Source: an uncultured virus (IMG/VR IMGVR_UViG_3300032323_001173)
Lineage: Duplodnaviria > Heunggongvirae > Uroviricota > Caudoviricetes
Strand: one strand, 5' to 3'
Virus record (IMG/VR): IMGVR_UViG_3300032323_001173
Length of the DNA: 34,399 nucleotides
The notes below the pieces were generated by a model. That model had not been told where the DNA came from and searched no databases. It saw nothing but the letters and a program-made list of their open reading frames with translations. The translations under genes were made by a program, and so were the position numbers. Of this stretch, positions 1 to 33,195 are shown piece after piece; the first letter of the stretch is position 1; the number at the start of each line of letters is the position of its first letter.

Positions 1-185
1 TCATTGATCGCACCGCAGGACATGCCGAGTTGATCCGCAATTGACTGCCACAGCATCCACAGAGCGATGTGTGCACGCTCATGATGCCGATGCCACATTG
101 CCTTGTCACTCTGCGTTGACATTGAATCAAAGCGGGCGTGCTGACAAATTGCCTTTGCAATTGTTTCTTCTATTCCGAATTTCAT
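1..185 (-). CDS. hypothetical protein, truncated at window edge (MKFGIEETIAKAICQHARF...)
   Basis: Manually translated; open to position 1; GAGGAGG SD 5 nt upstream of the ATG; not in the ORF track. Confidence 0.7.
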   Translation of the reverse strand, partial: MKFGIEETIAKAICQHARFDSMSTQSDKAMWHRHHERAHIALWMLWQSIADQLGMSCGAIN

Positions 186-228
186 GGTGACCTCCTCGGG
201 TCTTGTATTCACGACACTCGTGTGTCGC

Positions 229-272
229 TAGTCCCCAGTGCGAATTGAATCGCCACGACCTAGTCGCTGGGG
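229..272 (-). ncRNA. structured intergenic RNA element, copy 1 (three-stem, mini-tRNA-like)
   Basis: 36/44 identical to 570-613; all 8 differences form 4 compensatory base pairs. Confidence 0.65.
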
Positions 273-277
273 GAAAC

Positions 278-532
278 TCACTGCGCCTTCTCCTTCGCTT
301 GCTGTGCAAGTTGGAAGTCAAGGTGACTCACAGCGTCACGGCGGAGTTCATACGCTTCACCGTTAAATGCTCGGTCACCTGTTTCAATGTTGATGATCAG
401 CCAGTCAACACGGCGAACCTCAGGGCAACCCTTGGTGTGAAACTTCCAACACAATTCGTGGTCACAACAGGATGGGTCAGCCCAGTATTCGTCCTTGATG
501 ATGGCGTATTTGCTTCCCTTGTATGCCTTCAT
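278..532 (-). CDS. hypothetical protein (84 aa)
   Basis: ORF with GAGGAGG SD; co-oriented with its neighbours. Confidence 0.75.
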   Translation of the reverse strand: MKAYKGSKYAIIKDEYWADPSCCDHELCWKFHTKGCPEVRRVDWLIINIETGDRAFNGEAYELRRDAVSHLDFQLAQQAKEKAQ

Positions 533-569
533 GGTGCCTCCTCAGGCAGTTGTAACTGGCGGGTGCCAG

Positions 570-613
570 TAGTCCCCAGTCCCGATTGAACGGGCACGCC
601 CTAGGCGCTGGGG
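570..613 (-). ncRNA. structured intergenic RNA element, copy 2
   Basis: CCCCAGCGCCTAGGGCGTGCCCGTTCAATCGGGACTGGGGACTA on the minus strand; same length and fold as 229-272. Confidence 0.65.
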
Positions 614-619
614 TGACGC

Positions 620-1597
620 TCAATCTTGAATGACCCGTCCACCACCGTGGGCATCCACGATGGCTTGAGCCTGCTCACGAGTGAGTAAGTCAATTTTCTT
701 GGTTGACGGCGCCCATGTGGTGCCGTTCCAGTATTTGGTGTCGTATCCGACCTCTTTGGTGGCGTAGAAGCGAGGACGGCGATGCGCACGGGACTTGCCG
801 TCCGCACGCTGTGCGTATCCGCACACTGGGCAGTTGTGCCAGCGATCACCTCGGATCGTTGGTTGACCACTGCCCTCGCAACGCTCCTGAGCACGCTTCA
901 CAGCGTTCGCACGAGCCTTCTCACGGGCTTGCTGGAATGCCTCCACGCCCTGCTCGGCAAGTGTCAACGCCACGCTGGCGCTGATCTTGACCTGCTCACG
1001 TGACTCCACAGGAGCGTCAGGGAAGCAGACCGAGCACAGCGCCGATCCGAGATCGGCAACAGCATCCTCGGAACTGGATCCGCTGAGGTAAGGCACGAGC
1101 GCAAAGCCTGTTGGCTCGTGACCCTTATTGCAGGTGGAGCACTGCGTGCTGGAGTGAATGTGCCCGTCCGATGACGTCACGAGGTAGTAGCGACTCCATG
1201 GACGACTGCTGTATTCGGTGTTGCAGTCGCTGACGTCACGTTGTGCGTCCTCCAGTGCGATGCGAGCCTCAGTGAAGCGCTCGGCGTAACTGGTGGGCAG
1301 TGATCCGTACTTGCTGATCACGCCGTCATTGAACATGGCTTCGGCTTTGGCACCCGTCAACTGGATGCCCCGTGCCTCTGCAAACTCGGTTGGCATTGGA
1401 TCCAGTCGGTAGTCAACGACAGCCACGCTGTCACGCTGATAGCGACCGTTGTCCCAACGCAACTCTTTGCCGTAGGCACTGACCAAGGAGTCCGAGGCGT
1501 AGGAGTAGTGAACCATTGCCCGAGACTGGATGAATAAGCGCTCTAGATAGAGCAGGTCGTGCTCTACAGGAGTCAAGGTGGATAGTGAGACGCTCAT
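620..1597 (-). CDS. Cys/His-rich putative zinc-binding phage protein (325 aa)
   Basis: Start reassigned to MSVSLS (AAGGAGG SD); motifs GHIHxxxxCSTC, LCSVCFP, CEGSG...CPVCG. Confidence 0.8.
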   Translation of the reverse strand: MSVSLSTLTPVEHDLLYLERLFIQSRAMVHYSYASDSLVSAYGKELRWDNGRYQRDSVAVVDYRLDPMPTEFAEARGIQLTGAKAEAMFNDGVISKYGSLPTSYAERFTEARIALEDAQRDVSDCNTEYSSRPWSRYYLVTSSDGHIHSSTQCSTCNKGHEPTGFALVPYLSGSSSEDAVADLGSALCSVCFPDAPVESREQVKISASVALTLAEQGVEAFQQAREKARANAVKRAQERCEGSGQPTIRGDRWHNCPVCGYAQRADGKSRAHRRPRFYATKEVGYDTKYWNGTTWAPSTKKIDLLTREQAQAIVDAHGGGRVIQD

Positions 1598-1644
1598 GGT
1601 GAGCCTCCTTTGGATGAACTGGCTGTGTGCCAGTGGAGCGTGTT

Positions 1645-1699
1645 TGACGCTCATTCAGGACTGGAGCAGGGGGAATTCTCCAGCCCTCAATGAGCGCCA
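1645..1699 (-). promoter_or_regulatory. long leader hairpin (about 22 bp, one mismatch), possible RNase III site
   Basis: TGGCGCTCATTGAGGGCTGGAG pairs with CTCCAGTCCTGAATGAGCGTCA; two G-U pairs form only on the minus strand. Confidence 0.5.
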
Positions 1700-1926
1700 C
1701 GAGCCATCCGAAGATTGACCCGTGACGCTGAGGAATAGGTGCCCTGAAGTCAGCGAACGGTGTGTGCCGTTGAGTAATGCGCCGTGGGGGACTGTTGTTC
1801 AATTCCCCCGTGGCGGGCGTGCATGGATCCGTTGAAGCCATCTCTGCGAGGCACGAGGTCAGCCGATGTGAAGTCGGGTACGTGCCACATGCATGCGTGC
1901 ATTTTTGCCGAAGCATTCGGGCGCTC

Positions 1927-1943
1927 TTCAGTTGTCAAGGAAC
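1927..1943 (-). promoter_or_regulatory. rrn boxA-like antitermination sequence GTTCCTTGACAACTGAA
   Basis: Resembles Gram-positive/actinobacterial rRNA-leader boxA; lies about 40 nt downstream of the predicted promoter. Confidence 0.45.
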
Positions 1944-1986
1944 CTCAGGAACCTGCGCCCCAAACCGCAACGCAACTCCTGCATGG

Positions 1987-2015
1987 AGGGTAGCGGATGG
2001 GTGTACGTGAGTCAA
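1987..2015 (-). promoter_or_regulatory. sigma70/SigA-type promoter TTGACT-N17-TACCCT driving the leftward genes
   Basis: Good -35 match, 17-bp spacer, TANNNT -10 and an AT-rich upstream tract. Confidence 0.6.
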
Positions 2016-2572
2016 CCACCAAAGGCAATTAATTCTTGAGAATCTTGCGAGCCATGCCCCATATGGGCGGAAGCGGATCTAGGGCTGGAATTGGGCGCCC
2101 CCAACGACCAGCCATCCATCGGATGGAGGAGATACAGGAGGAGCCATTGGAGGAGCCACGGGAGGCATGGAATACGCAGAGAATTCAAATAACCAATGAA
2201 TGCTGGAGAATGCTCTGAGACGCTTCAGGATGCGTTCTAAGCGATGCAGTGCGTGGAATGACACGGAACGTGCTGGATAGCAACTGGGAGGCTTAGGGAG
2301 TACGTCATACACCACCCCATACCCCGCAGATCCATACACCGCTTGGCTTATAGCCCCATTCCTAGGGTGAACAGGACGCACAGGAGGCTCTGTAATCAAA
2401 ATAATGGATTGCGATTCATAATCGCCCCTGCTCCTCTGAGAATGGCTCCTGATGCGTCTGAAGCGAAATGGCATTTGTCAAGTCATTCGGGCACATTGTC
2501 ATCAACTTGTAACATTGGTGTGACGAACGACACATGTGACGAACGTCATACGTGTTAGGCGCCCCTAACAAT

Positions 2573-2588
2573 TGTTCCACGTGGCACA
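2573..2588. promoter_or_regulatory. parS-like palindrome TGTTCCACGTGGCACA
   Basis: 2 mismatches to consensus TGTTNCACGTGAAACA; 1 mismatch to the perfect palindrome TGTTCCACGTGGAACA. Confidence 0.35.
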
Positions 2589-2673
2589 TCCACAGCCCTG
2601 TGTATAACCCTGTGGACATCCTGTGGATAACCATGGCAAAGCCATACAGGGCATGGAGCCAGCCTGTGGATAA
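2586..2673. promoter_or_regulatory. cluster of DnaA boxes (oriC-like)
   Basis: TGTGGATAA at 2622 and 2665 (perfect), TGTGTATAA at 2599, TGTGGACAT at 2611, ACATCCACA at 2586. Confidence 0.6.
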
Positions 2674-2810
2674 CCCCCCATGGTTAAAGGGCGGAGCGGA
2701 GCGGGGAGGGGGGGTGAACTCAGGCCCCACCCAACGCTCCATGGCTCAATAGCCCCATTCAAAAATCCGACCGACCACCCACCTCGCCCAAATAGCCCTA
2801 TACTTGATAA

Positions 2811-3080
2811 ATGCCACGCCCAGACGGTCCACAGTTCCGCAAAGTAGGAAACCATAAAATGTACCGACACGGTACAGGTAACTGGGAGACCACAGACAAC
2901 TACCACTTCCAGCAAGGAACCCCTCCTACTAACTTGTGGAACGTGCATGACCTCCGAGATGCGGATGCATGGGAACCAGTGTTTGAAACACAGCACGGTA
3001 ATCTTAAGAATGCCCATGCTGAATTTAGGCAATACCACCCTGAGCGTGAAGCGGGTGAAAAGCCGCTACTGGACTACTAA
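2811..3080 (+). CDS. hypothetical protein with N-terminal DGPQF tag
   Basis: ORF; TATACT 6 nt upstream; stop/start overlap with the next gene. Confidence 0.75.
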   Translation: MPRPDGPQFRKVGNHKMYRHGTGNWETTDNYHFQQGTPPTNLWNVHDLRDADAWEPVFETQHGNLKNAHAEFRQYHPEREAGEKPLLDY

Positions 3081-3235
3081 TGCCTCGCCTAGACGGACAG
3101 CAATTCAATGACTATGTGTGGGTAGACGGTGAGCCTGTGTCCCGTCAAGAGATCCACCAAGCCGCTGGGTTCACCAAGCGTGACCCTGAGTACCTGCTAG
3201 AAAAGCATAAGCAAAAACAGGAACGGAAGAAGTAA
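3080..3235 (+). CDS. small hypothetical protein (51 aa, MPRLDGQQF...)
   Basis: Manually translated; TAATG overlaps at both ends; N-terminus similar to the 2811 gene. Confidence 0.75.
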   Translation: MPRLDGQQFNDYVWVDGEPVSRQEIHQAAGFTKRDPEYLLEKHKQKQERKK

Positions 3236-3741
3236 TGTCAGCATCAGACCATGTCGGTGACCACATCATGCGTGTGGTGTATCACTCCTCGGGACGTAAA
3301 ACGCCACCACATGAGATGACGTTTGACCACCATGAACGTGACCGACAGCGTAAAGAAACGCATAACATGAACCACAACATGCACCCAGACATCATTCACG
3401 CTGGTACGTACGCCTCCGCACAAGAAATCAGCGCTGGTTCCCGTAAATACATGCACGAGTACGAGATTGATACCAGTGAAATGTCTCCCGTGACCTACGA
3501 TGACGCCGTCAACATGCGTGAAACTGACGCTTTTAAAAAGAAAATGTCAGGTGTACAACAGAGTTTGTGGGAGTCAGTGCCCAGCACAGGACTAGAAACG
3601 TTAAAACATGGTCGTGTGCAACCGTACCGTAACAAAGCAGAAGATGAAGGAAGTATTTCGTACATGATTCCTAAATCTGAAGTTGGAACTAGTCGTGTAA
3701 AATACCTTGGCATGCATGAAATCAACCGCAAGGAAGACTAA
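3235..3741 (+). CDS. hypothetical protein, possible ADP-ribosyltransferase fold
   Basis: VYHSS...IHAGT...YRNKAEDEGSISY resembles phage ART-like domains; family call is tentative. Confidence 0.55.
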   Translation: MSASDHVGDHIMRVVYHSSGRKTPPHEMTFDHHERDRQRKETHNMNHNMHPDIIHAGTYASAQEISAGSRKYMHEYEIDTSEMSPVTYDDAVNMRETDAFKKKMSGVQQSLWESVPSTGLETLKHGRVQPYRNKAEDEGSISYMIPKSEVGTSRVKYLGMHEINRKED

Positions 3742-14841: not shown

Positions 14842-16533
14842 GTGGCACAGAAATTCACAGTACCTATTACTGTTAAGCAGTTAACGTCTGCTAGTTCTGA
14901 CGCCGTAACCGTCTATGTTGATCAAGACACCTATGCCCGCTTAAAACTTGAAGCAGGCGGGCGCCTTGTCTGGGGTGACGGCTCAAACTCTGGCGATACT
15001 GTTCTATATCGTGATTCTGCCAATGTCCTTAAGACAGACGACACCTTTAAAGCACCTGTTTTATTTGTAGACAGCATTGAGATTGACACTACTGGTGCAA
15101 CATCAGGGCAAGTACTCAAATTTGACGGCACTAAATTTGCCCCAGGGGTTGCCAGCACTGTTGGTTCTATTGATGACCTCTCAGATGTTGTAATTACCGC
15201 CGCCGTTGATGGTCAAATTCTTGTATTTAATGGTACTAACTGGGTTAACACTGTTCTCCCAACAAATGAACCGATGGGTCACCAAGATAAATCAGAAAGT
15301 ACAATTTCTTTTAATGAGAGTACACGCACGTTCTCTATCGCTCCAGTTTCTACGTCATACACCGTATGGTGTGCTGGAAAGCGCTTTGTAAAAACAACCA
15401 CTTCAACGGTTACTATTCCAGACACTTCTGGTCTTTACTACATTTATTTTAACTCTTCAGGTGCTCTGGCGTACAAGACAACATATTTCACTTGGGATAC
15501 TGATACCCCAACTGCCTATATCTACTGGAACGAAGTAGACAACAAGGCATATTTCTTTGCTGACGAACGCCACGGCATAACGCTTGACTGGGCCACACAT
15601 GAGTATCTACATAGAACTCGTGGTGCTGTCATTGCAAACGGTTTTGGCGTATCAAACTACTCAATTGTGGGTAACGGCTCATCTGACGCTCATGCCAAGT
15701 TTGACCTTGCTGGTGGAACCTTCTTTGACGAAGATCTTCAGGTTGACATTGTCCATTCAAATACTCCTACAGCAAATACGTGGCAACAGGTGCTTGAAGG
15801 TAACGCTGAGATTCCAGTTTTCTATAAATTTAACTCACATTGGACTAAAGATACAGCAACAGAGTTTGCATTTAAACAAGGTACTTCTCGCCCAAGATAT
15901 AACTCGTACAGCGCACCAAACTGGTCAACGGTAGACATTGATAACAATAAGTTTGCTATCTCTTGGATTATTGCCACGAACAACCTGAATGAGCCAGTCA
16001 TTGCAATCATGGGGCAGGCTTCATACAACACCATTGGCAAAGCAGAAGCGGCTATTTGGGAAGACCTTAACCTTGACGGATTCCCGATCTTTGAATTCCG
16101 CCCATTGCATAAGGTTGTATTCCAAGGAACCGATTCATTCACTAACTCTGTAAATGCTGCTATTCGTGGTATTTACGACTTACGCCGTGTCTCTTCTGGC
16201 GGTGATGCAATCCCTTCAACACCTGTTTCTGACCACGGGTCATTGACTGGTCTTGCAGATGATGACCATACCCAGTACTTAACTGATACTCGCCATAACG
16301 CCCTTGACCACTCAACAGCAATGGGAACAGTGGTACTGGATGACATTAGCAACGTAGCGGTCCCATCCCCAGCAGTTGGTGACGTACTACAATGGAATGG
16401 CACATCTTGGGTAAATGCGGCTGGTAGTACTGCGGGTGACCTTGATGGTGGGAATGGCAGTCTTCCAATAATTTATGAAGCAGAATTAACTAACGCTATT
16501 ACAACGACGTACGACGGAGGCTTATTAGTATGA
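14842..16533 (+). CDS. tail fibre / minor tail protein
   Basis: IDDLSDV...GQILVFNGTNWVN repeats; DHGSLTGLADDDHTQY. Confidence 0.7.
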   Translation: MAQKFTVPITVKQLTSASSDAVTVYVDQDTYARLKLEAGGRLVWGDGSNSGDTVLYRDSANVLKTDDTFKAPVLFVDSIEIDTTGATSGQVLKFDGTKFAPGVASTVGSIDDLSDVVITAAVDGQILVFNGTNWVNTVLPTNEPMGHQDKSESTISFNESTRTFSIAPVSTSYTVWCAGKRFVKTTTSTVTIPDTSGLYYIYFNSSGALAYKTTYFTWDTDTPTAYIYWNEVDNKAYFFADERHGITLDWATHEYLHRTRGAVIANGFGVSNYSIVGNGSSDAHAKFDLAGGTFFDEDLQVDIVHSNTPTANTWQQVLEGNAEIPVFYKFNSHWTKDTATEFAFKQGTSRPRYNSYSAPNWSTVDIDNNKFAISWIIATNNLNEPVIAIMGQASYNTIGKAEAAIWEDLNLDGFPIFEFRPLHKVVFQGTDSFTNSVNAAIRGIYDLRRVSSGGDAIPSTPVSDHGSLTGLADDDHTQYLTDTRHNALDHSTAMGTVVLDDISNVAVPSPAVGDVLQWNGTSWVNAAGSTAGDLDGGNGSLPIIYEAELTNAITTTYDGGLLV

Positions 16534-18893
16534 GCGTAAAAATACAAGTAAAACGGACAACCAAGCAGGCGTGGATTGACGTCAACCCCCTGCTAGACGC
16601 TGGTGAGTTCGGCTATGAGACCGACACGGGTAACTTCAAGATTGGTAACGGTACGTCGCTATGGAACGCTCTTGGTTATGCCGCCTACGATGCCTCCCTT
16701 TTGGAAGAGCGCTTTGCTGAAGAAGCCTGGCACAGGCCAGCACGTTTAGCAACAGCCGCTGTATTGCCTAACACCCCTGCGTACACCGCAGGATCTGCGG
16801 ACGCAGATGGTGGTACGGGTACAGGCGCATATCTTCAGGCATCAGAGAACGCTCGTTTGGTTGTAGACAGTGTTAACGCTGTCACGGGTAACCGTATTTT
16901 GGTAAAAGACCAAGTAAACACGATTCACGACGGTGTTTATGATGTGACTGCACAAGGCAGTGCTAGCGCTCCTTGGAGGTTAACACGTTCAGCAGACATG
17001 AACGGATCACGAGTTGGGCAAGCAACACAAGGTGAAGTTGTCGGAGTACTTGAAGGAACCACTAACTACAACCAACAATTTTCAATTTCTTCAGTAGGTA
17101 CTGGCGCAGATGGGGCGCACCTAATAGGTTCTGACTCTTTAACTTTCCAACAAATTACAGGAACGGCTTCTTTTAACGCTGGTGCTGGTCTTACGGTTTT
17201 CGGAAACACACTGAATGTGTCAAGTGCCGCATCTAGCCGCATCTTTGTAACGGAAAACGCCATTGACCTTGCCCCAATTACGCAAGGAGACAATAGCGCC
17301 GCCGCAACTAATACTTTTGTTTCTGCTATTACCCGTGACGGTTATGGTCGTGTTTTAGGTGTTACTACCAATGACGTAACTTTAACGTTGGGCACCCACA
17401 CCACTGGTAATTACGTTGCAGAACTAACCGCAGGAACAGGTGTAACTGTAACTAACAGCGGTGGAGAAAATTCTAATCCTACTGTGGCTATCGGACAAGC
17501 CGTAGGAACGACCTCAAACGTTACGTTTGCTACGGTCACAGCAAGTCTTACGGGTAATGCTTCCACAGCCACAACCCTGCAAACGCCAAGAAATATTGCT
17601 GGTCAGTCTTTTGATGGATCTGCAAACATTTCAATTGCACCTACTGACCTCACTGGCGTTACTTCATCAGCCTCAGAACTAAATATCCTTGACGGCGCTA
17701 CCCTTTCAACAACTGAACTTAACTACGTTGATGGTGTAACTTCTGCAATACAAACTCAATTAGATAACAAAGCAAGCGCTACAGCATCACCTGTAATCAC
17801 TCTTGGTGGAGATTTGTCTGGTTCTGCAACTCTTACAAACCTTGGTAACGCAACACTGACTGCAACAATTGCCGCTAATTCAGTGGCATTAGGTACCGAC
17901 ACTACTGGTGATTATGTAGCATCATTGGTTGCTGGTACTGGCGTGACCTTGACTAATAACTCAGGTGAGGGCGCAACCCCTACAATTGCGATTGGTCAAG
18001 CAGTAGGTACAGGTGCGTCAGTTGGGTTTGCACAAGTAACCACAACTGGAAACGTAACAGTTGGTGGTGACATCTATGTCAACGGCACATACTTCACTAC
18101 TACAGAAACAAGTCTTGCGATTGAAGATCCATTTATTTATTTAAATGACGGTTCAACGGTAACAAATCCAGACCTTGGAATTGCTGGAAACTACAATGAC
18201 GGAACGTACAGACATGCTGGAGTATTCCGTGATGCCACTGACGGTAAGTGGAAGTTCTTTGACAGTTATACACCAGAACCAAACAACCCAATTGACACGG
18301 GGCATGGAACGTATGCTCCAGCAACAGTAGTTGCCAAATCAATTGAAAGCACAGTTTCAACTGGAACAGCGCCATTGGTTGTTGCATCAACAACAGCCGT
18401 TACTAACCTAAACGCTGACCTTCTTGATGGTCAACACGGTTCGTTCTATGCGCCAATAAACAACGCATCATTTACTGGAACCTTTAGCGCTCCTTCGGGA
18501 ACAATTACCAGCACGATGATTGCTGATGGGACTATTGTAAATGACGATGTTTCTGCAACAGCGGCTATTGATCTTGGTAAGTTGGCTGACGTTTCAACAA
18601 ACGCTCAAACCGCTTCGTACACACTTGTGTTGGCTGACAAAAATAAGGTTGTGGAAATGGGTGTTGGCTCTGCCAATAACCTGACTGTGCCTCTTAACTC
18701 ATCACAGGCTTTTCCTGTGGGTTCACAAATCAACATCCTTCAAACTGGCTCAGGCCAAACCACAATCGTGGCTACGGGTGGAGTGACCATCAACGCCACA
18801 CCAGGTCTTAAGATGCGAGCGCAGTGGTCGTATGCTACGCTAATCAAACGAGCAACCGATACTTGGGTATTGGTAGGAGATATTTCGGCGTAA
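16530..18893 (+). CDS. long tail fibre protein with Mtd-N/hyaluronidase-like N-terminus
   Basis: IQVKR...NPLLDAGEFGYETDTGNFKIGNG; NADLLDG; internal duplication. Confidence 0.8.
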   Translation: MSVKIQVKRTTKQAWIDVNPLLDAGEFGYETDTGNFKIGNGTSLWNALGYAAYDASLLEERFAEEAWHRPARLATAAVLPNTPAYTAGSADADGGTGTGAYLQASENARLVVDSVNAVTGNRILVKDQVNTIHDGVYDVTAQGSASAPWRLTRSADMNGSRVGQATQGEVVGVLEGTTNYNQQFSISSVGTGADGAHLIGSDSLTFQQITGTASFNAGAGLTVFGNTLNVSSAASSRIFVTENAIDLAPITQGDNSAAATNTFVSAITRDGYGRVLGVTTNDVTLTLGTHTTGNYVAELTAGTGVTVTNSGGENSNPTVAIGQAVGTTSNVTFATVTASLTGNASTATTLQTPRNIAGQSFDGSANISIAPTDLTGVTSSASELNILDGATLSTTELNYVDGVTSAIQTQLDNKASATASPVITLGGDLSGSATLTNLGNATLTATIAANSVALGTDTTGDYVASLVAGTGVTLTNNSGEGATPTIAIGQAVGTGASVGFAQVTTTGNVTVGGDIYVNGTYFTTTETSLAIEDPFIYLNDGSTVTNPDLGIAGNYNDGTYRHAGVFRDATDGKWKFFDSYTPEPNNPIDTGHGTYAPATVVAKSIESTVSTGTAPLVVASTTAVTNLNADLLDGQHGSFYAPINNASFTGTFSAPSGTITSTMIADGTIVNDDVSATAAIDLGKLADVSTNAQTASYTLVLADKNKVVEMGVGSANNLTVPLNSSQAFPVGSQINILQTGSGQTTIVATGGVTINATPGLKMRAQWSYATLIKRATDTWVLVGDISA

Positions 18894-18896
18894 CTT

Positions 18897-19580
18897 ATGG
18901 CAACAAAGGACTCAGGCGGAAAGCAACCAGGTACCCCAACAATTGGTACTGCCACGTTTGATAACACAAACGGTAATGCTTCTGTAACTTTTACGCCTGG
19001 GTACGCTGGTAAGGGGACAGTAACTTATACAGTTACGTCTAGTCCTGGCAACATCACAGGTACGGGGTCTTCTTCTCCAGTTACTGTAACTGGGTTAACT
19101 GCTGGAACTGCTTACACTTTTACCGTACGGGCAAACTCTAACAACGGTATTTCTTCAGGAACTTCTGGGTCTTCAAACTCTATTACTCCTGGAATTAAGC
19201 CATCAGCACCAACTATTGGTACGGCTACAGCAGGTAACGCTCAAGCAACTGTTACATACACTGCTGGTTCTGTAGGTTCGGGTGGAGTTACTTATACCGC
19301 TACGTCTAGTCCTGGGGCTAGAACAGGAACAGGTACCTCACCAATTACGGTTACAAGTTTAACAAATGGAACTGCATACACATTTACGGTAACCGCTTCT
19401 AACGCTTATGGTTCAAGTACATCTGCCTCATCTAACTCGGTGACCCCAGTTGCACCTCCGTACTTTCCACCGTACTTTCCACCATTTTTTCCACCTTTCT
19501 TTCCACCATTTTTTCCACCTTTCTTTCCACCGTTTTTTCCACCGTATTTTCCACCGTTCTTCCCTCCTGCATTTAAGTAG
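18897..19580 (+). CDS. two fibronectin type III domains plus C-terminal (PPxF)10 tail
   Basis: Two P..PTIGTAT...LT.GTAYTFTV.A units; PPYF/PPFF repeats. Confidence 0.85.
   Translation: MATKDSGGKQPGTPTIGTATFDNTNGNASVTFTPGYAGKGTVTYTVTSSPGNITGTGSSSPVTVTGLTAGTAYTFTVRANSNNGISSGTSGSSNSITPGIKPSAPTIGTATAGNAQATVTYTAGSVGSGGVTYTATSSPGARTGTGTSPITVTSLTNGTAYTFTVTASNAYGSSTSASSNSVTPVAPPYFPPYFPPFFPPFFPPFFPPFFPPFFPPYFPPFFPPAFK
19455..19574 (+). repeat. coding repeat of ten PP(Y/F/A)F tetrapeptides
   Basis: 12-bp period with synonymous codon variation. Confidence 0.95.
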
Positions 19581-24169: not shown

Positions 24170-24434
24170 AGCAAGCACTCCATTTGGGAGTGAGGATTAC
24201 AGATTATCTATAGAAGAAGGTAACCCTGCTCGTGTGTCATTTCGTGACAACACTGTAGAAATAACTAACTACAAGTTTTCTGATACAGGGTTTCACGCAA
24301 TCTTTGATATTGCCGTACCAATGACCACTTCTGTTTTGCTTACGTTTATGAAAGACATAAACAAAGACACTTATAGTGGTATTGCAAAAATTGGTGACTT
24401 TACAACTGTAACCCTGACAGCAACCGTACTATGA
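24153..24434 (+). CDS. small beta-rich hypothetical protein
   Basis: ATG start MDLLIKASTPFG; ATGA overlap with the next gene. Confidence 0.65.
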   Translation: MDLLIKASTPFGSEDYRLSIEEGNPARVSFRDNTVEITNYKFSDTGFHAIFDIAVPMTTSVLLTFMKDINKDTYSGIAKIGDFTTVTLTATVL

Positions 24435-25048
24435 GTGAATCCATATTTGACATCAATATCTCATCATTAGACGGTACTCCTGACTTGATGACACAGGTAA
24501 AAGGAAACATTTGCTTATTTGTAAATATTGCTTCTAAGGCTGGGTATTCCCCGACATGCAGTAAAGTGTGGTCATACGCAAGGACTGCAAAGTGGTTATG
24601 GGAACTACAGCAAGTACATGACGAGTTTTTTGACAAAGGTTTTAGAGTTGTCGCTTTTCCATGTGACCAACTTGGTGGGATGGAACCACTTGAAAATGAT
24701 CAAATACTTGAATTTATTAAAGAAAACTACCCATTTGTAACATTCCCAATTAGTGAAAAGATAGATGTAAACGGACCAAACGAACACCCCATTTACACGT
24801 TCATTAAAGGTCCAGAGCGTAGAAACTTTAATGACAACACGGCTGATCTGTCCGAATCCGCTAAAAAGGGTCAGAACTTGGCAATGCAGGCGATGATGAG
24901 AATCCCACATAACTACGAGAAGTTCTTGATTAGTAGGGAAGGCGTACGCATCGCACGGTTTAACTGGCAGGATTCACCACTTGCTACTAAGCCTTTAGTA
25001 TTTGGCGCTGGTTGGACGATTAGGGAAGCGATAGCCGATGTCCTATGA
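24431..25048 (+). CDS. glutathione peroxidase-family protein with atypical active site
   Basis: VNIASK.G, AFPCDQLGGMEP, KIDVNG...HPIY and NYEKFLI motifs. Confidence 0.85.
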   Translation: MSESIFDINISSLDGTPDLMTQVKGNICLFVNIASKAGYSPTCSKVWSYARTAKWLWELQQVHDEFFDKGFRVVAFPCDQLGGMEPLENDQILEFIKENYPFVTFPISEKIDVNGPNEHPIYTFIKGPERRNFNDNTADLSESAKKGQNLAMQAMMRIPHNYEKFLISREGVRIARFNWQDSPLATKPLVFGAGWTIREAIADVL

Positions 25049-25955
25049 ACCCGAGCACCTGGGTAGTGGGGTAATTGTATTTAGAAACGTCATAGATGTA
25101 GACCATGACTTTTTAATACCGTACCTTGCAGATCTACATAAAAAGGTAGTTAGTGAAGACTTCACCATTATTCATGATGCTGACGGTGCCCCATTATATG
25201 CCGTTAACAGATCTGGTCATAGGTACGACCTTGAACGGATTAATCAAGTAAACAGAATCATGGGGTTTGCCACGTCAGATAAAACAAGCCAAACGTATAA
25301 GTTCTTTGAAGGCTGTGAATCTGCTATCTATCAATGCCTACTTAGATACATAGAACAATATCCAATGTTATTACCGTCAATATGGTGGAAAGAGCAGGGG
25401 CATGTAGTTGCCTATAGCCCAAATAGTGCAATGGGATACCACTCAGATAATGATGTTAATTATCAACCAGGTGCTATACCTGACTTTCAAGTAGCCACAC
25501 GTCATGTTGTCGGTTGTGTTTTGTATTTTAACGATTCAGTAGATACCACTGACGACATTACTCCCTATACGTATGTTGGTGGGGAGTTAGATTTTAAGTA
25601 TCTAAATATCACATACAAGCCCAAATCTGGTGATGTCATTTTCTTTCCGTCTAATTATATGGCTACTCATGAAGTTAAAGATATTACAGATGGTGCACGA
25701 TATGCATATATCTCTTACTTTTCACAAGGTTCACCAGACGCACAACGAGGTATAAGTCCAGCAGAACGTATGGATCTTTTGATGTCCAGTCAAGTATGGA
25801 TACCTGAGTTGTTTGAAGACTATAGGACCTATCTGATCGGTAAGTATGGAGATGGTTTAACTAATCACCCACACTTAACACTCCCTCTTGATAGGATCAA
25901 CACTAGTAATGGCACACAAGAAGAAGTGTTAAGAGAGAAGAGTAAGCATGCGTAA
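25038..25955 (+). CDS. 2OG-Fe(II) oxygenase, prolyl 4-hydroxylase-like
   Basis: HSD...YFND...GGEL...FPSNYMATHEV...GARY. Confidence 0.9.
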   Translation: MSYEPEHLGSGVIVFRNVIDVDHDFLIPYLADLHKKVVSEDFTIIHDADGAPLYAVNRSGHRYDLERINQVNRIMGFATSDKTSQTYKFFEGCESAIYQCLLRYIEQYPMLLPSIWWKEQGHVVAYSPNSAMGYHSDNDVNYQPGAIPDFQVATRHVVGCVLYFNDSVDTTDDITPYTYVGGELDFKYLNITYKPKSGDVIFFPSNYMATHEVKDITDGARYAYISYFSQGSPDAQRGISPAERMDLLMSSQVWIPELFEDYRTYLIGKYGDGLTNHPHLTLPLDRINTSNGTQEEVLREKSKHA

Positions 25956-26808
25956 CAACGATGTCTCCTCACGCCATTTAGGTGGAGGTATTCTTTTATT
26001 TGAGAATGCTCTTTCTTTTGATTCAGACTGGATAGTTAAGTTTTCTGAAGAACAAGTAAGTAAAGAGCGGGACGAGATGTACACACCTACAGTACATCCA
26101 GAAACTGGAGAACCTGCGTTTCTTAATAAGAGCGGTTATCTATTTGATGCTGACGGTATAAACATGATGCCCCGTAGAGGTTCGGCTATCCACAGAACAG
26201 AGGATCCCGAGGTTCGTAAGTTCCTTGACTTTATAGAAACCGCTAAAGATCGGTACCTGTTGAAATACTTCATGGAGTTTCCAATTGCATACAAGAACAT
26301 ATGGTGGAAAGTAAAAGGACATCTTGTTTCTTACTCCACCACTAATGGCGGTAAGTTCTTAGGTAGTCACTCAGATACCAGCGCTGACTATCTTTACGGG
26401 TACCCACACCCAGCAGACCAATTGGCTACTAGAAACACCTTAACTAGTCTTGTTTATTTAAATGACAACTTTAGTGGTGGTCATCATTATTTTAATTATT
26501 TAGATATTGAGTATGTCCCAAATAAGGGTGACATTCTATTGTTTCCGTCTAACTTTATGACGGCTCATGAAGTCACCCCAATACTGGATGGTAGTAGATA
26601 CACGTACTTAGGTTGGTACGCCCATGGATCCCCTAATCCTGCTGTAAATGAACATATTGTTGATCCAGTTGAATCACCAGAACTCGCTAAAACAGCAACC
26701 AATGTGTATATGCCAACATTAAGGGACGACTTCTATAACTACATGGTAGAAGTAAATGCGGACAAAGACTTCCATGGGTGGTCTCTAGTAGAAAGTATTA
26801 ACTCGTGA
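25948..26808 (+). CDS. 2OG-Fe(II) oxygenase, prolyl 4-hydroxylase-like
   Basis: HSD...YLNDNFSGG...FPSNFMTAHEV...GSRY. Confidence 0.9.
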   Translation: MRNNDVSSRHLGGGILLFENALSFDSDWIVKFSEEQVSKERDEMYTPTVHPETGEPAFLNKSGYLFDADGINMMPRRGSAIHRTEDPEVRKFLDFIETAKDRYLLKYFMEFPIAYKNIWWKVKGHLVSYSTTNGGKFLGSHSDTSADYLYGYPHPADQLATRNTLTSLVYLNDNFSGGHHYFNYLDIEYVPNKGDILLFPSNFMTAHEVTPILDGSRYTYLGWYAHGSPNPAVNEHIVDPVESPELAKTATNVYMPTLRDDFYNYMVEVNADKDFHGWSLVESINS

Positions 26809-27542
26809 TAGCAACACACTTAGGAAACGCAATTGTCAAATATGACAATGCCATTTCAATTGACCCGCAGTTCATGTCAGGTTTTTATGACCGCCTTCAA
26901 CAAACAGGTGTAACCCATGGGGAAACTATTGACGAAGAGCATGTGCGTACGGAGGGTAAGTATATTTTTGATAAAACAAAGATAGTGGAATCACCACAAC
27001 GGTTTACTGACCTTTCTAAATTAACTTCTGAAGAAGATCAACTCTTTGTTAAGAACATGAGAAGTATTATCCATCGTTGTGTGCGTGAATATGTGCACAC
27101 TTTTCCTGTAGTTGCGGAATGTATTAGATGGTCAACTGATGGATACGTAATTAAATACGAAAATGGTCAATCCATTGGACCACACTCAGACTGTAGTATT
27201 GCTTACGCAGATGATGGGGTTACTCCAATAAATACGTTCCCAATGCAAAACATTATTACATGTGGACTAATGCTTAATGACGACTATGAAGGCGGTGCAA
27301 TCTCGTATAGACCTTGGGGCATTACCACCAGACCAGATGCTGGATCAGTTTTAATATACCCATCATCATACGTAGGGTGTCATGAAGTTGCCCCTATTAC
27401 CTCTGGTGTCCGCTATGCATACTTGATGTGGTATGGGCATGGTCCTATTGGTGGTTTTAATCACCGCACAGTAGATGATGTGCGTGGTTCAAACTCTAGT
27501 CAAGATATAGTTCTTGTTGGACAACTTCCGTTGTATGAGTAA
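26805..27542 (+). CDS. 2OG-Fe(II) oxygenase, prolyl 4-hydroxylase-like
   Basis: HSD...LNDDYEGG...HEV...GVRY. Confidence 0.9.
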   Translation: MIATHLGNAIVKYDNAISIDPQFMSGFYDRLQQTGVTHGETIDEEHVRTEGKYIFDKTKIVESPQRFTDLSKLTSEEDQLFVKNMRSIIHRCVREYVHTFPVVAECIRWSTDGYVIKYENGQSIGPHSDCSIAYADDGVTPINTFPMQNIITCGLMLNDDYEGGAISYRPWGITTRPDAGSVLIYPSSYVGCHEVAPITSGVRYAYLMWYGHGPIGGFNHRTVDDVRGSNSSQDIVLVGQLPLYE

Positions 27543-28574
27543 CTATAAGGTTCTTATTTTTCCACGATTTTGATTATCTTCAAAAACCTTATCGTGTTTG
27601 TATAACTGTCGGTGTCCTTCTTCCCCTTCTAGACTCCTGTTTTGAAATATAGGATTAGGTTTAAGTTGAAGATTTGTCTCACCGTATTCTGTTAATAGGC
27701 AATACTTTTGATAATCATCAAATAAGTTGTCTATCCAATGTGCCCTGCACCATGTATCACATTCGTCAGGTTCTACTACGCTAACCATCACTTCTTCGTG
27801 ACTAATACCTTGGGAAAAGAACTCCAAATAACAGTATCTATTACCTTTGAGTACTGTATTAACTCCATGTGTGGCAATGTAATTAGTAGGGAATATATAT
27901 ACATCGCCTTGTTTTGGTTTAGTAGTAATACCTAAATAAGGAAAAAACAGTTCTCCACCAACATAATTAGTACCGTCATACTCGTCTGTATCTACACAGT
28001 CATTGATGTAAATTAGTACCGCAACGACTTGACGCATTTGTAGTTGACCCTTGGGTATGTATCGTTTACCATTAGTTGAACGGTAGTTAGAGTCATTGTC
28101 ATTATGTATACCTAAGTAGTCACCAACGTCATACCTAATTACATGCCCACGGTTTCTCCACCAGATGGTCCCTAAAACCATGGGAAACATATCTATGTAT
28201 TTGATAAGGCATTTATAAATGGAGTCTTCCCAATATTTAAAAATGTCAACCATATGCGGTTCGGTGTCTGGTTTAACAGGTTCCAATACACGTACAGGAA
28301 CTTCTTCAATCTGTTCTATAGAAAACTTGTTACCATCTTCGTTTAGAGCGTATCTATTTCCATAGTCATCTACTTTGTAAGTCCAGCGTTGCTCATGAGC
28401 CTTTTGAGAGTTCCTATCAATCCATTCTGTTACTAATGGTCTATCTATAGAAACCGCTGATGGAAAACGGACAACACCGCCACCTAGGTCTTCTACTGCC
28501 ATTTTTTTAATGTCAAGAATGACATTCTCATCAATTAATGGGGTATCACCACTGAAATAATTACTTGTGCTCAT
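27543..28574 (-). CDS. 2OG-Fe(II) oxygenase, prolyl 4-hydroxylase-like
   Basis: HND...YIND...GGEL...FPTNYIATHGV...GNRY; start could instead be 28592. Confidence 0.9.
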   Translation of the reverse strand: MSTSNYFSGDTPLIDENVILDIKKMAVEDLGGGVVRFPSAVSIDRPLVTEWIDRNSQKAHEQRWTYKVDDYGNRYALNEDGNKFSIEQIEEVPVRVLEPVKPDTEPHMVDIFKYWEDSIYKCLIKYIDMFPMVLGTIWWRNRGHVIRYDVGDYLGIHNDNDSNYRSTNGKRYIPKGQLQMRQVVAVLIYINDCVDTDEYDGTNYVGGELFFPYLGITTKPKQGDVYIFPTNYIATHGVNTVLKGNRYCYLEFFSQGISHEEVMVSVVEPDECDTWCRAHWIDNLFDDYQKYCLLTEYGETNLQLKPNPIFQNRSLEGEEGHRQLYKHDKVFEDNQNRGKIRTL

Positions 28575-29241
28575 GTGCCAAGTTGTATGCATGCATATGC
28601 AACAACAACCTCTGTGGACTAGTTAAAGGGCTAAACAACACCGTACGTTCACCTTTAGTGATCATATTTACACCATGGGTGTACTCATGACCCCCAGGAA
28701 ACAGTACTAATTGTCCTTTTTTAGGTTTAATAGTTAAACCACGGGTAACAAACGTTAATTCTCCACCTTCAAAATCATCTGTTAAATATAAGTTTGCGGC
28801 TACTTCAATAAGAATAGGAGTATTAAATTCTGATGGTGAGTAACGTGGCATAAACTCAACCACCCCCGCATCCATAGCCTCAGAATCAGCATGGGGTTCG
28901 TGATCCATTCCTGGTTTAAAGCATTTTAAATATGGTTCTAATCTATGAACCAGCGTGCGTCCGTAAATGTCAGACGCCAATTCCACTATCTTTTTACCGT
29001 ACTTTTCCATTAATGGATGTGTTGACTTCTCAGGCCACACAGCCTTTCTCTTTCTTATCTCTTCTGCGTAAGCACCTACAAGGCGTACTTCACCTTTATT
29101 AAATTGGTACTCGGGAGCCACCCATGAACAATAAGATTCCCATTGGTACTCAGTATCATGAAACCTAAGTAACTCTAACCTGTCCTCTTCTGTTATGAAA
29201 TTCTCAAAAGAATAGATATGCTCATGCCCTAGGTAAGCCAT
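28561..29241 (-). CDS. 2OG-Fe(II) oxygenase, prolyl 4-hydroxylase-like
   Basis: HAD...YLTDDFEGGEL...HGV...GER. Confidence 0.9.
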   Translation of the reverse strand: MAYLGHEHIYSFENFITEEDRLELLRFHDTEYQWESYCSWVAPEYQFNKGEVRLVGAYAEEIRKRKAVWPEKSTHPLMEKYGKKIVELASDIYGRTLVHRLEPYLKCFKPGMDHEPHADSEAMDAGVVEFMPRYSPSEFNTPILIEVAANLYLTDDFEGGELTFVTRGLTIKPKKGQLVLFPGGHEYTHGVNMITKGERTVLFSPLTSPQRLLLHMHAYNLAHEHK

Positions 29242-31635: not shown

Positions 31636-33195
31636 GTGCTTACAGACGACGAATTAGACGAAAACCTCTTAGCGGAGGACGTAGCCGAAGAACTGGACGA
31701 AACCTCAGCCGAGTTTGTGGACGAATTGGTTAAACGCATAATTGTGTTTACCGAAGAGTTCTGTGACGTGGAGTTGTTTCCGTACCAGATCCCTATTGCC
31801 TATCGCTTAATTGAATCCGTCATTCTTGGTGACGGTGAAGAAATGACGGTGGTGGCTACACGCCAGTCAGGTAAATCTGAAGTGCTCTCTAACGTCATGG
31901 CGTCACTTATGGTGATCTTGCCTAAGTTGGCTAAGGTCTATCCGACATGGCTTGAGAAGTTTGAAAAGGGTTTTTGGTGTGGGGTATTTGCTCCTGTTGA
32001 AGACCAAGCAGACACAGTATTTAGCCGTATCGTTAGCAAACTAACTAGCGACCACGCTATGGAGTTCTTGTTGGATCCTGAGATTGGTGACAAAGCCACA
32101 TCAGGCGGTGCTCGTGGTAAGGGTCGCATCATTACCTTGAAGCACTCAGGATCACTTTGCCGTATGCAAACCTGTAACCCAAAGGCAAAGATTGAATCAA
32201 AAACCTACCACTTTGTTATGATTGACGAGGCTCAGGAAGCCGACGAGTACATGATTGCCAAATCAATCAAGCCTATGTTGGCGTTTAATAACGGAAGCAT
32301 TTGCCTGACAGGAACGGCTACCCGTAACAAGTCTTATTTCTACAAAATGATCCAGTACAACAAACGACGTATGGTCAACGGTAAGAGGACACGCCCATGC
32401 CACTTTGAGTATGACTGGAAGGTTGCTTCTAAGTACAACTCTAACTACGCAAAGTTTATTGCTAAAGAGAAGTTGCGCATCGGTGAAGACTCAGACGAAT
32501 TTCAAATGTCGTACTGCAACAAGTGGGTACTTGACCGAGGTATGTTTGTTACAGACGAACGCCTAGAGCGCCTCTACGATCCTTCTATGGCGCTGATCAA
32601 ACAGTGGTGGCGTACCCCTGTGGTGGTTGGTATTGACGTCGCCCGATCTAATGACTCCACGGTAGTGACCGTCTGCTGGGTGGACTGGGACCATCCAGAT
32701 CCGTTTGGGTTTCATGAGCACCGTGTCCTCAACTGGCTGGAGATTAACAACGAAGAATGGGAATCCCAGTACTTCCAGATCATTGACTTCCTACGCAACT
32801 ATGACCCCCTACGTATTGGGATTGACTCTCAGGGTGTTGGTGGTGCGGTAGCCGAGCGTATGCAGATCTTGCTTCCTGATATTGAAGTTGTGGCTATCTC
32901 TTCTGACTCCAAAGCCCAGCACGAACGTTGGGTACACCTAACAGAATTGATTCAGAGAGATCAATTAATAATTCCAGGGCATTCCAAGGCTCGCCGTAAC
33001 CGTGTATGGAAGCGTTTTAATCAGCAGATGAGTGACCTAGAGAAGACTTATCGTGGTCCATACATGCTGGCTGAAGCCCCTGATGAAAAGGGCGCTTTTG
33101 ACGACTACCCAGACTCTCTGGCTATTGCCTGCTTTATGTCTATGCACGACACCCTGCCTCAAATACAAGTAGCAGAAAACCCATTCTTTAATTGA
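31636..33195 (+). CDS. terL: terminase large subunit
   Basis: Walker A TRQSGKS, Walker B VMIDEAQ, GTA coupling motif, nuclease motifs GIDVA and DDYPDS. Confidence 0.92.
   Translation: MLTDDELDENLLAEDVAEELDETSAEFVDELVKRIIVFTEEFCDVELFPYQIPIAYRLIESVILGDGEEMTVVATRQSGKSEVLSNVMASLMVILPKLAKVYPTWLEKFEKGFWCGVFAPVEDQADTVFSRIVSKLTSDHAMEFLLDPEIGDKATSGGARGKGRIITLKHSGSLCRMQTCNPKAKIESKTYHFVMIDEAQEADEYMIAKSIKPMLAFNNGSICLTGTATRNKSYFYKMIQYNKRRMVNGKRTRPCHFEYDWKVASKYNSNYAKFIAKEKLRIGEDSDEFQMSYCNKWVLDRGMFVTDERLERLYDPSMALIKQWWRTPVVVGIDVARSNDSTVVTVCWVDWDHPDPFGFHEHRVLNWLEINNEEWESQYFQIIDFLRNYDPLRIGIDSQGVGGAVAERMQILLPDIEVVAISSDSKAQHERWVHLTELIQRDQLIIPGHSKARRNRVWKRFNQQMSDLEKTYRGPYMLAEAPDEKGAFDDYPDSLAIACFMSMHDTLPQIQVAENPFFN

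Follow-up and report, generated by a model that had tools for sequence, protein, structure and literature searches.

The gaps between small genes of an uncultured tailed phage were found to carry a structured RNA whose core is a three-way junction (3WJ) of 40 nt, and this RNA belongs to a real, strongly supported structured family that is absent from Rfam. The family is new; its general kind, a repeated structured signal between phage genes, is already known. The DNA analysed was a single stretch of 34,399 nt, hereafter the window, from an uncultured member of the Caudoviricetes (IMG/VR record IMGVR_UViG_3300032323_001173), which contained two copies of the junction, and further copies were collected from related viral contigs.

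A covarying three-way junction in the gene-sense strand

The element was seen in the window as a 44-nt repeat at 229-272 and 570-613, and its copies lie in the two gaps that separate three - strand genes. Eight positions distinguish one copy from the other, and they make up 4 base pairs, all of which are kept Watson-Crick, 3 of them in the arm that ends in the UUCAAU loop (P3) and 1 in the small hairpin (P2). On the - strand, which is the gene-sense strand, both copies fold into the same 3WJ, composed in order of P1 (CCCCAG/CUGGGG, 6 bp), P2 (4 bp with a 3-nt loop, starting directly after the 5′ strand of P1), an unpaired UG, P3 (4 bp with the UUCAAU loop) and an unpaired A, and after the closing of P1 there follows an ACUA tail (Table 1). 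Both the MFE and the centroid structure of each 44-mer were exactly this 3WJ, with ensemble frequencies of 0.71 and 0.73, and the folding z-scores were modest (-2.9 and -1.8). The pattern CCCCAG-N25-40-CTGGGG occurred 2 times in the 34.4-kb window against 0.03 expected, and 0 of 100 shuffles gave 2 occurrences. A preliminary description of this DNA had proposed the four compensatory pairs, the fold with its closing stem, small hairpin, UUCAAU arm and ACUA, a start of each copy 5-6 nt past the upstream stop codon, and an orientation on the transcribed strand; all of these were borne out, the fold beginning 5 nt (copy 1) and 6 nt (copy 2) past the stop and the orientation being right because the genes here lie on the - strand.

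Table 1. Coordinates of the junctions, the cassette parts and the adjoining genes (window positions unless a locus is named)
Feature	Position	Strand	Remarks
3WJ, copy 1	233..272	-	covariance model 71 bits; MFE fold
P1, copy 1	272-267 with 238-233	-	
P2, copy 1	266-263 with 259-256, loop 262-260	-	
Junction UG, copy 1	255-254	-	
P3, copy 1	253-250 with 243-240, UUCAAU loop 249-244	-	
Junction A, copy 1	239	-	
3′ linker ACUA, copy 1	229..232	-	
Hairpin A, copy 1	211..228	-	7-bp stem, basal G·U, 4-nt loop
SD hairpin, copy 1	189..202	-	form NNCC(U)-GAGG-AGGNN; innermost pair C·A in copy 1
ATG downstream of copy 1	185-183	-	
3WJ, copy 2	574..613	-	covariance model 73.2 bits; P3 CCCG/CGGG, P2 CGCC/GGCG; architecture as copy 1
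3′ linker ACUA, copy 2	570..573	-	
Hairpin A, copy 2	555..570	-	6-bp stem ACUGGC/GCCAGU, 4-nt loop
SD hairpin, copy 2	535..548	-	UGCCU-GAGG-AGGCA
ATG downstream of copy 2	532-530	-	
344-aa gene	620..1654	-	phrog_2433, unknown function; first gene after ORF-poor region; TGA ends 6 nt before copy 2
84-aa gene between copies	278..532	-	TGA ends 5 nt before copy 1
Gene downstream of copy 1 (MKFGIEE...)	3..185	-	runs off window edge
Alternative intercistronic modules in relatives	L001:4040-4157, L015:3190-3306, L001:6560-6662		same slots as 3WJ

A pattern scan of IMG/VR gave 51 loci with about 35 distinct and obviously related 40-nt copies, several per contig. A covariance model was made from 36 copies and was used to search the same loci for divergent copies, which scored 34-66 bits and in which the closing stem varied (CCCUAG/CUAGGG, CCCGUG/CACGGG, CCCGCA/UGCGGG and others). 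A second, looser pattern scan gave 119 stretches, and the scans combined yielded 98 distinct copies (flanks counted) in uncultured viral contigs, 58 of them 44 nt and 40 of them 43 nt long. In 57 distinct full cassettes, standard pairs filled 97.8% of 1068 cells and both-sided changes were present in 11 of the 19 pairs, and the covariation score was matched in none of 500 shuffles. When the partner columns were slid by 1-3 positions, pairing fell to 24-50%. RNAalifold, to which the structure was not supplied, recovered P1, P2, the inner part of P3 and the hairpin that holds the SD.

The loop, GUG, the CCC/GGG ends and the AC tail were prescribed in the search patterns, so that their invariance is partly by construction; the stems were left free in the patterns, so their covariation is not. 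A model search in the arrays, which was free to vary the pattern-fixed parts, gave a change of A41 to G, seen twice, as their sole variant. The 6-nt UUCAAU loop, fixed by the patterns, was present in 98 of 98 copies, position 41 was A in 96 of 98, and C42 was invariant and was followed by U in 67 copies, by A in 31 and by C in none. The base before the fold (N-1) was C in 94 of the 98 copies, mostly after UU, and in no copy did it pair with position 41. P3 comprised 3-4 Watson-Crick pairs closed by G-C, A-U or C-G.

The strand of the functional molecule was decided by the wobble pairs. Across the 98 copies, P1 and P2 read in the gene sense contained 923 Watson-Crick pairs, 49 G·U pairs, one A·C and 7 other mismatches. 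Read from the opposite strand, each of the 49 wobbles would be an A·C mismatch, and the functional molecule is therefore the sense strand, that is, the mRNA. An N4-type hairpin promoter was rejected on the same count, such promoters needing the hairpin on the template strand, which would bear the A·C mismatches. The conserved cis RNA of the preliminary description is thus strongly supported by the 98 copies, by the covariation of every helix, by the independent RNAalifold result and by wobbles on the gene-sense strand only; a covariance-model scan of related phages had been put forward there as a check, and it brought more copies, covarying in every helix.

A search of Rfam 15, the other check suggested at that stage, gave 0 matches of the element to any family at the gathering score, tRNA, tmRNA, ribozymes and others (hammerhead, twister, pistol, hatchet and xrRNA among them) included. 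Neither tRNA nor tmRNA models matched at E ≤ 10 on 451 nt or 3.3 kb, and the lone match on the element within this threshold, to a flavivirus repeat model, lay on the opposite strand with 14.3 bits against a gathering score of 43 (E 4.6) and was taken as chance. ARAGORN found 0 tRNA genes in the window and in 34 related loci, and there is therefore no true tRNA in the equivalent slots of those loci. A full-text literature search did not find the element described. Among 185,579 species genomes of GTDB there were 39 pattern matches, all at 24 bits or less against 34 or more for the family and none with cassette context; these lie within our own rough estimate of chance, so that no host or prophage copy was shown, which is not proof of absence. 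Three loci from sponge-associated and gammaproteobacterial MAGs (L057, L075 and L077) shared a near-identical stretch of about 45 nt that combines a GGUUCAAUCC-like arm with a closing stem of 7 bp, scored 24, 24 and 21.7 bits to the 3WJ model and stood outside any cassette context; it is probably an unrelated conserved RNA. Three further candidates were considered and rejected. A pseudoknot between the UUCAAU loop and the 25-nt upstream flank (with the UGA stop) or the 45-nt downstream flank showed no enrichment over controls, the mean best pairing being 3.75 nt upstream and 3.77 nt downstream against 3.4-4.5 for control loops and 3.62-3.63 for shuffled flanks. Integron attC sites have conserved boxes that differ from those of the 3WJ, and CRISPR-repeat mimics are not three-way junctions.

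The intercistronic cassette and its interchangeable modules

The 3WJ forms part of a cassette of about 95 nt that runs from the stop codon through the 3WJ, an AC(U/A)R linker, a covarying hairpin, an A-rich spacer and a hairpin containing the SD to the ATG. The SD and ATG end 39-52 nt past the fold in 59 of 59 copies of the first set, and each of the 57 copies whose flank is long enough has the stop of an upstream ORF 5-25 nt ahead of the fold (5-9 nt in 33 of them), TGA being used in 44, TAA in 8 and TAG in 5. The second hairpin occurs in several covarying types with 51 distinct sequences. In the subclade of the window the SD hairpin has 5 bp (NNCCU-GAGG-AGGNN) and its two outer pairs covary (G-C 30, U-A 20, others; 57 cassettes). 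In a second subclade the 3WJ and the other hairpin are retained, but what follows is an A-rich leader and a plain SD without a hairpin. The SD hairpin was also noted before most genes of the arrays, with the 3WJ present or absent.

A simple consensus scan of window 1-3300, which for promoters covered the sigma-70 type only, found neither such a promoter nor a U-tract terminator on the - strand in either cassette. An intrinsic terminator was rejected on the order of the parts, the 3WJ being followed by AC(U/A)R and a hairpin and that hairpin by the A-rich spacer, with no U-run. Short contigs from two RNA-library runs cover 318-560 and 764-1030, and contigs of this kind cannot show ends or prove transcription.

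The number of copies per genome was small. Four records that are 99-100% complete (95-97 kb) held 2, 4, 2 and 2 copies and a 78%-complete record held 7, in each case clustered inside a few kb; with just 2-4 copies in near-complete genomes, the element is not needed at every gene. When downstream genes were grouped as orthologs by their first seven residues, at least seven groups had the 3WJ in one phage and a different structured upstream module in another, two of the "other" entries in this grouping being 3WJs overlooked by the regular expression, and many groups had differing 3WJ variants among phages. The alternative modules are built on very stable interrupted helices (z -6.7 to -8.3) that extend over about 20 bp, the size of classical RNase III sites; each helix leads into a short hairpin, after which the A-rich spacer and the same SD hairpin are again present. 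The modules of this slot thus swap freely among phages, and the 3WJ and the long-hairpin modules appear, as judged from these comparisons, to be functionally equivalent there.

The window is part of a tailed phage, with a large terminase (31636-33195), tail-fibre-like proteins and several 2OG-Fe(II) oxygenases. Its TerL is about 46% identical to terminases of Streptomyces phages of about 112-116 kb, the 344-aa protein weakly resembles proteins of Mycobacterium, Microbacterium and Gordonia phages, and parts of the window DNA are present in freshwater, lake, river and wetland metagenomes; on these grounds we infer that the host is a freshwater actinobacterium. Among 50,697 phage records, a megablast search with window 1-3000 and a blastn search with the cassette gave nothing above chance (20-30-nt matches for the cassette). 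The nearest record (G001, 12 kb) contained no copy of the element. The gene at 3..185 leaves the window, and more copies may therefore exist past its left edge.

A proposed role in processing and stability of the message, and other readings

The reading we favour, and hold tentatively as a quite possible one, is that the 3WJ is an intercistronic element for the processing and stability of a polycistronic message of small genes, a form of punctuation between them. Starting from the observed fold, strand, position, modular build and interchangeability with hairpins, we infer the cleavage, its site and the enzyme. The 3WJ would act in cis on the sense strand of a message over presumably early small genes, and an endonuclease of host or phage would cleave the message at the fold or next to it, the single-stranded A|C linker (GGGA|C) being the likeliest site. 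Of the two ends made by the cut, that of the upstream cistron (3′) would be capped and protected by the compact 3WJ and that of the downstream one (5′) by the hairpin that follows; each cistron would thus be insulated from its neighbours. The anatomy suits this order of events, as the fold comes right after the stop and is followed by a single-stranded linker, a hairpin, an open A-rich stretch and the SD. A study of mycobacterial RNase E reports cleavage of single-stranded RNA just 5′ of a C that follows purines, at sites that are enriched in intergenic regions (PMC10641625). The GGGA|C linker fits the motif given there in part, the +3 base being A or G here, not U (PMC10641625).

The preliminary description had thought of an RNA that splits or stabilises the early transcript, possibly as a tRNA mimic cut by RNase P/Z, or of a protein-binding site. 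Splitting or stabilising the transcript is what fits the anatomy best; the RNase P/Z form gained no support, there being no Rfam or ARAGORN match. That the UUCAAU loop, the unpaired UG and A of the junction, C(-1) and A41-C42 do not vary implies a putative sequence-specific partner, which would read the sequence and not the shape alone. The same invariance is a counterpoint to the favoured reading, since a purely protective or insulating structure would not require an invariant loop and junction bases.

Invariance of the loop, the UG and A of the junction, C(-1), A41 and C42 while all stems vary might instead mark an operator, at which a trans-acting RNA-binding protein of phage or host would read loop and junction and thereby control the timing of the downstream gene or its translation. 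Translational repressors of phages act in this manner on specific hairpins; the fold always lies 39-52 nt upstream of the start codon, and in the subclade of the window the SD is inside a covarying hairpin. We nevertheless regard an operator as unlikely. Orthologues that have an unrelated long-hairpin module, or no module, in that place fare just as well, which argues against gene-specific control, the downstream SD is not in a hairpin in the second subclade, and neither a Pfam RNA-binding domain nor a candidate binder was found in the neighbouring proteins (16 window proteins scanned).

Mimicry of a tRNA would assign the acceptor stem to P1, the T-arm to the UUCAAU arm and the discriminator to A41, and the fold would then be released by host RNase P at its 5′ edge, before C1, and by RNase Z or a similar enzyme on its 3′ side, past A41. 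UUCAA fits the T-loop consensus UUCRA, and the arm would have 5 stacked layers on an interpretive reading that counts G19·A34 (44-nt copies) or U18-A34 plus G19·A33 (43-nt copies). This likeness is offset by a loop of 6 nt, not 7, and by a closing pair that is variable (A-U, G-C, C-G) instead of G53-C61, and the acceptor-like stem has 6 bp, not 7, and starts with C-G. The unpaired A41 and the invariant C42 resemble the discriminator and C74, and N-1, mostly C, never pairs with position 41; the position equivalent to 75, however, is U or A and never C, giving a tail of AC(U/A)R and not CCA. There is no anticodon arm, the variable 3-nt loop of the small hairpin cannot provide a partner for G19 of the D-loop, and long plain hairpins can replace the element. 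Apart from the chance flavivirus hit, neither tRNA, tmRNA nor any other Rfam model reached E ≤ 10, and ARAGORN was likewise negative. A precedent is provided by the t-elements of plant mitochondria, incomplete tRNA-like folds that can direct RNase P/Z cuts at mRNA ends (PMC1920247). Taken together, we consider the mimicry and the two cuts that go with it as rather improbable. Still bolder would be a variant in which the junction is a candidate new small nuclease-resistant or self-cleaving fold.

That the repeats are recombination boundaries or mobile cassettes with PeSL-like gene shuffling, or else DNA-level protein sites or cruciforms, was judged very unlikely. Contigs from freshwater-run DNA match the cassettes and diverge at their edges, breaking or switching partners exactly there (loose ends at 275, 529, 571, 606 and 613), one of them carries a chimeric cassette, and the same genes bear different cassette variants across phages; the PeSLs of T4-like phages are a precedent (PMC2839356). 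Homology-driven shuffling, however, leaves unexplained the covariation that keeps pairing despite diverging stems, the 49:1 ratio of G·U to A·C indicates one RNA strand, and a promoter and a terminator, the defining PeSL parts, were not found by our scan. Shuffling more plausibly results from the repeats than constitutes their function. A terminator, attenuator or put/nut-like antiterminator RNA acting on RNA polymerase would suit a structured RNA in a leader or intergenic position and the larger, distantly similar structured leader ahead of the first gene of the array, but it is scarcely credible, with no U-tract after either structure and with one copy per gap and 2 to 7 per genome, unlike antiterminators, of which 1-2 sites are known.

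Comparison with known systems, and neighbouring features

In coliphage T7, RNase III processing sites lie between the early genes, each an irregular double-stranded helix of about two turns. Like them, the cassettes are structured modules of a polycistronic phage message, a single one standing in each gap just after the stop and ahead of the next RBS, and the slots in relatives can hold hairpins of about 20 bp, the RNase III size. The differences are that the longest helix of the 3WJ is 6 bp, or 10 bp if P1 and P2 stack, and is therefore too short for RNase III, that loop and junction are invariant, and that cleavage is here a prediction; the 3WJ was thus rejected as a T7-type site.

The t-elements described by Forner et al. 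(2007, PMC1920247) were found via the GGTTCRANYCC T-arm motif, are cloverleaf-like, measure about 74 nt and have mapped ends. Like them, the 3WJ is a partial tRNA-like fold in an mRNA precursor by coding regions, with UUCAA and an unpaired purine after the closing stem. Unlike them, it has 40 nt, a 6-nt loop, a variable closing pair, no anticodon arm and no tRNA-model match, and it is known here from sequence alone. As a t-element T-arm, which in that text has a 5-bp stem and a 7-nt loop with GGTTCRANYCC, it was rejected on its 6-nt UUCAAU loop and its 3-4 Watson-Crick pairs (PMC1920247).

For Cluster K mycobacteriophages, Pope et al. (2011, PMC3203893) describe a 13-nt SAS consensus at the SD and, upstream of it, the 17-bp imperfect inverted repeats of the ESAS, in which changes in the two arms do not, per the authors, support RNA pairing. 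The two systems share repeated conserved sequences before many non-structural actinobacteriophage genes in one orientation with the SD included, an extra upstream inverted repeat at some genes, and the use of the same gene families across phages (PMC3203893). They differ in that there is no sequence similarity, the 13-nt SAS consensus as given there is absent, and every helix here covaries (PMC3203893); the SD context of the cassette is NNCCUGAGGAGGNN, not the published consensus, and the cassette was rejected as SAS/ESAS.

The PeSLs of T4-type phages are described as combining an early promoter with a terminator stem-loop (Arbiol et al. 2010, PMC2839356; Comeau et al. 2014, PMC4122927). Like the present elements, they are short cassettes repeated between non-essential early genes of variable regions, with different genes on the two sides, a pattern suggestive of shuffling at the repeats. 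Our cassette scan found neither promoter nor terminator, and the core here is a three-way junction. The 3WJ is a member of none of these four systems, sharing their general kind and differing in architecture.

Intercistronic structured RNAs govern the cutting, stabilising and translation of phage early messages. To our knowledge, such signals have been characterised in very few phages and in none from freshwater actinobacteria. Being small, abundant (98 distinct copies), strongly covarying and absent from Rfam, the family is ready for experiments. If it is the processing and stability module that we favour, it would offer a compact natural insulator part for actinobacterial operon design and a handle on RNA decay in hosts not yet easily grown; if it is a tRNA mimic, tRNA punctuation would extend from organelles to phages, and a 40-nt element without an anticodon arm would be the first mitochondrion-style tRNA punctuation of a bacteriophage message.

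Several other features of the window were recorded. The leader of the first gene of the array (window 1652-1745, - strand) is strongly structured (z -4.67), and the leaders of relatives (L001:1739-1796, L015:1788-1847 and L009:2025-2084) gave weak matches of 12-15 bits to the 3WJ model; the array leader looks like an enlarged, distantly similar fold with a loop containing UCAAU. An ORF-poor stretch of about 1.4 kb (1655-3080) separates the leftward small-gene array from the rightward genes, and it is conserved at the DNA level in relatives, where L001 at about 550-1870 yields similar spurious translations. It contains four direct repeats of the CCTGTGGATAACC type (2594-2675, two of them exact), the core of which is the reverse complement of the DnaA-box consensus. 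Also present are the palindrome TTRGGGGCGCCYAA, twice (2091-2104 and 2555-2568), and a pair of TGTGACGAACG in tandem or palindromic arrangement (2518-2551). The stretch may serve as an origin of replication or as a regulatory hub. The G+C content was 56-58% in window 1-2000, the small-gene array, against 38-50% over structural and other genes. The tail-fibre-like protein encoded at 16530-18893 (787 aa) begins with an Mtd_N domain, the N-terminal domain of the major tropism determinant (E 5e-9). Paralogous genes lie in a row at 24431-28592, with internal repeats that connect 25.3-27.4 kb and with 2OG-Fe(II) oxygenase domains in at least two paralogues (25038-25955 on the + strand and 27543-28592 on the - strand). 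Finally, eight tandem 12-nt repeats at 19434-19577, within the ORF at 18897-19580, encode a protein repeat of 4 residues.
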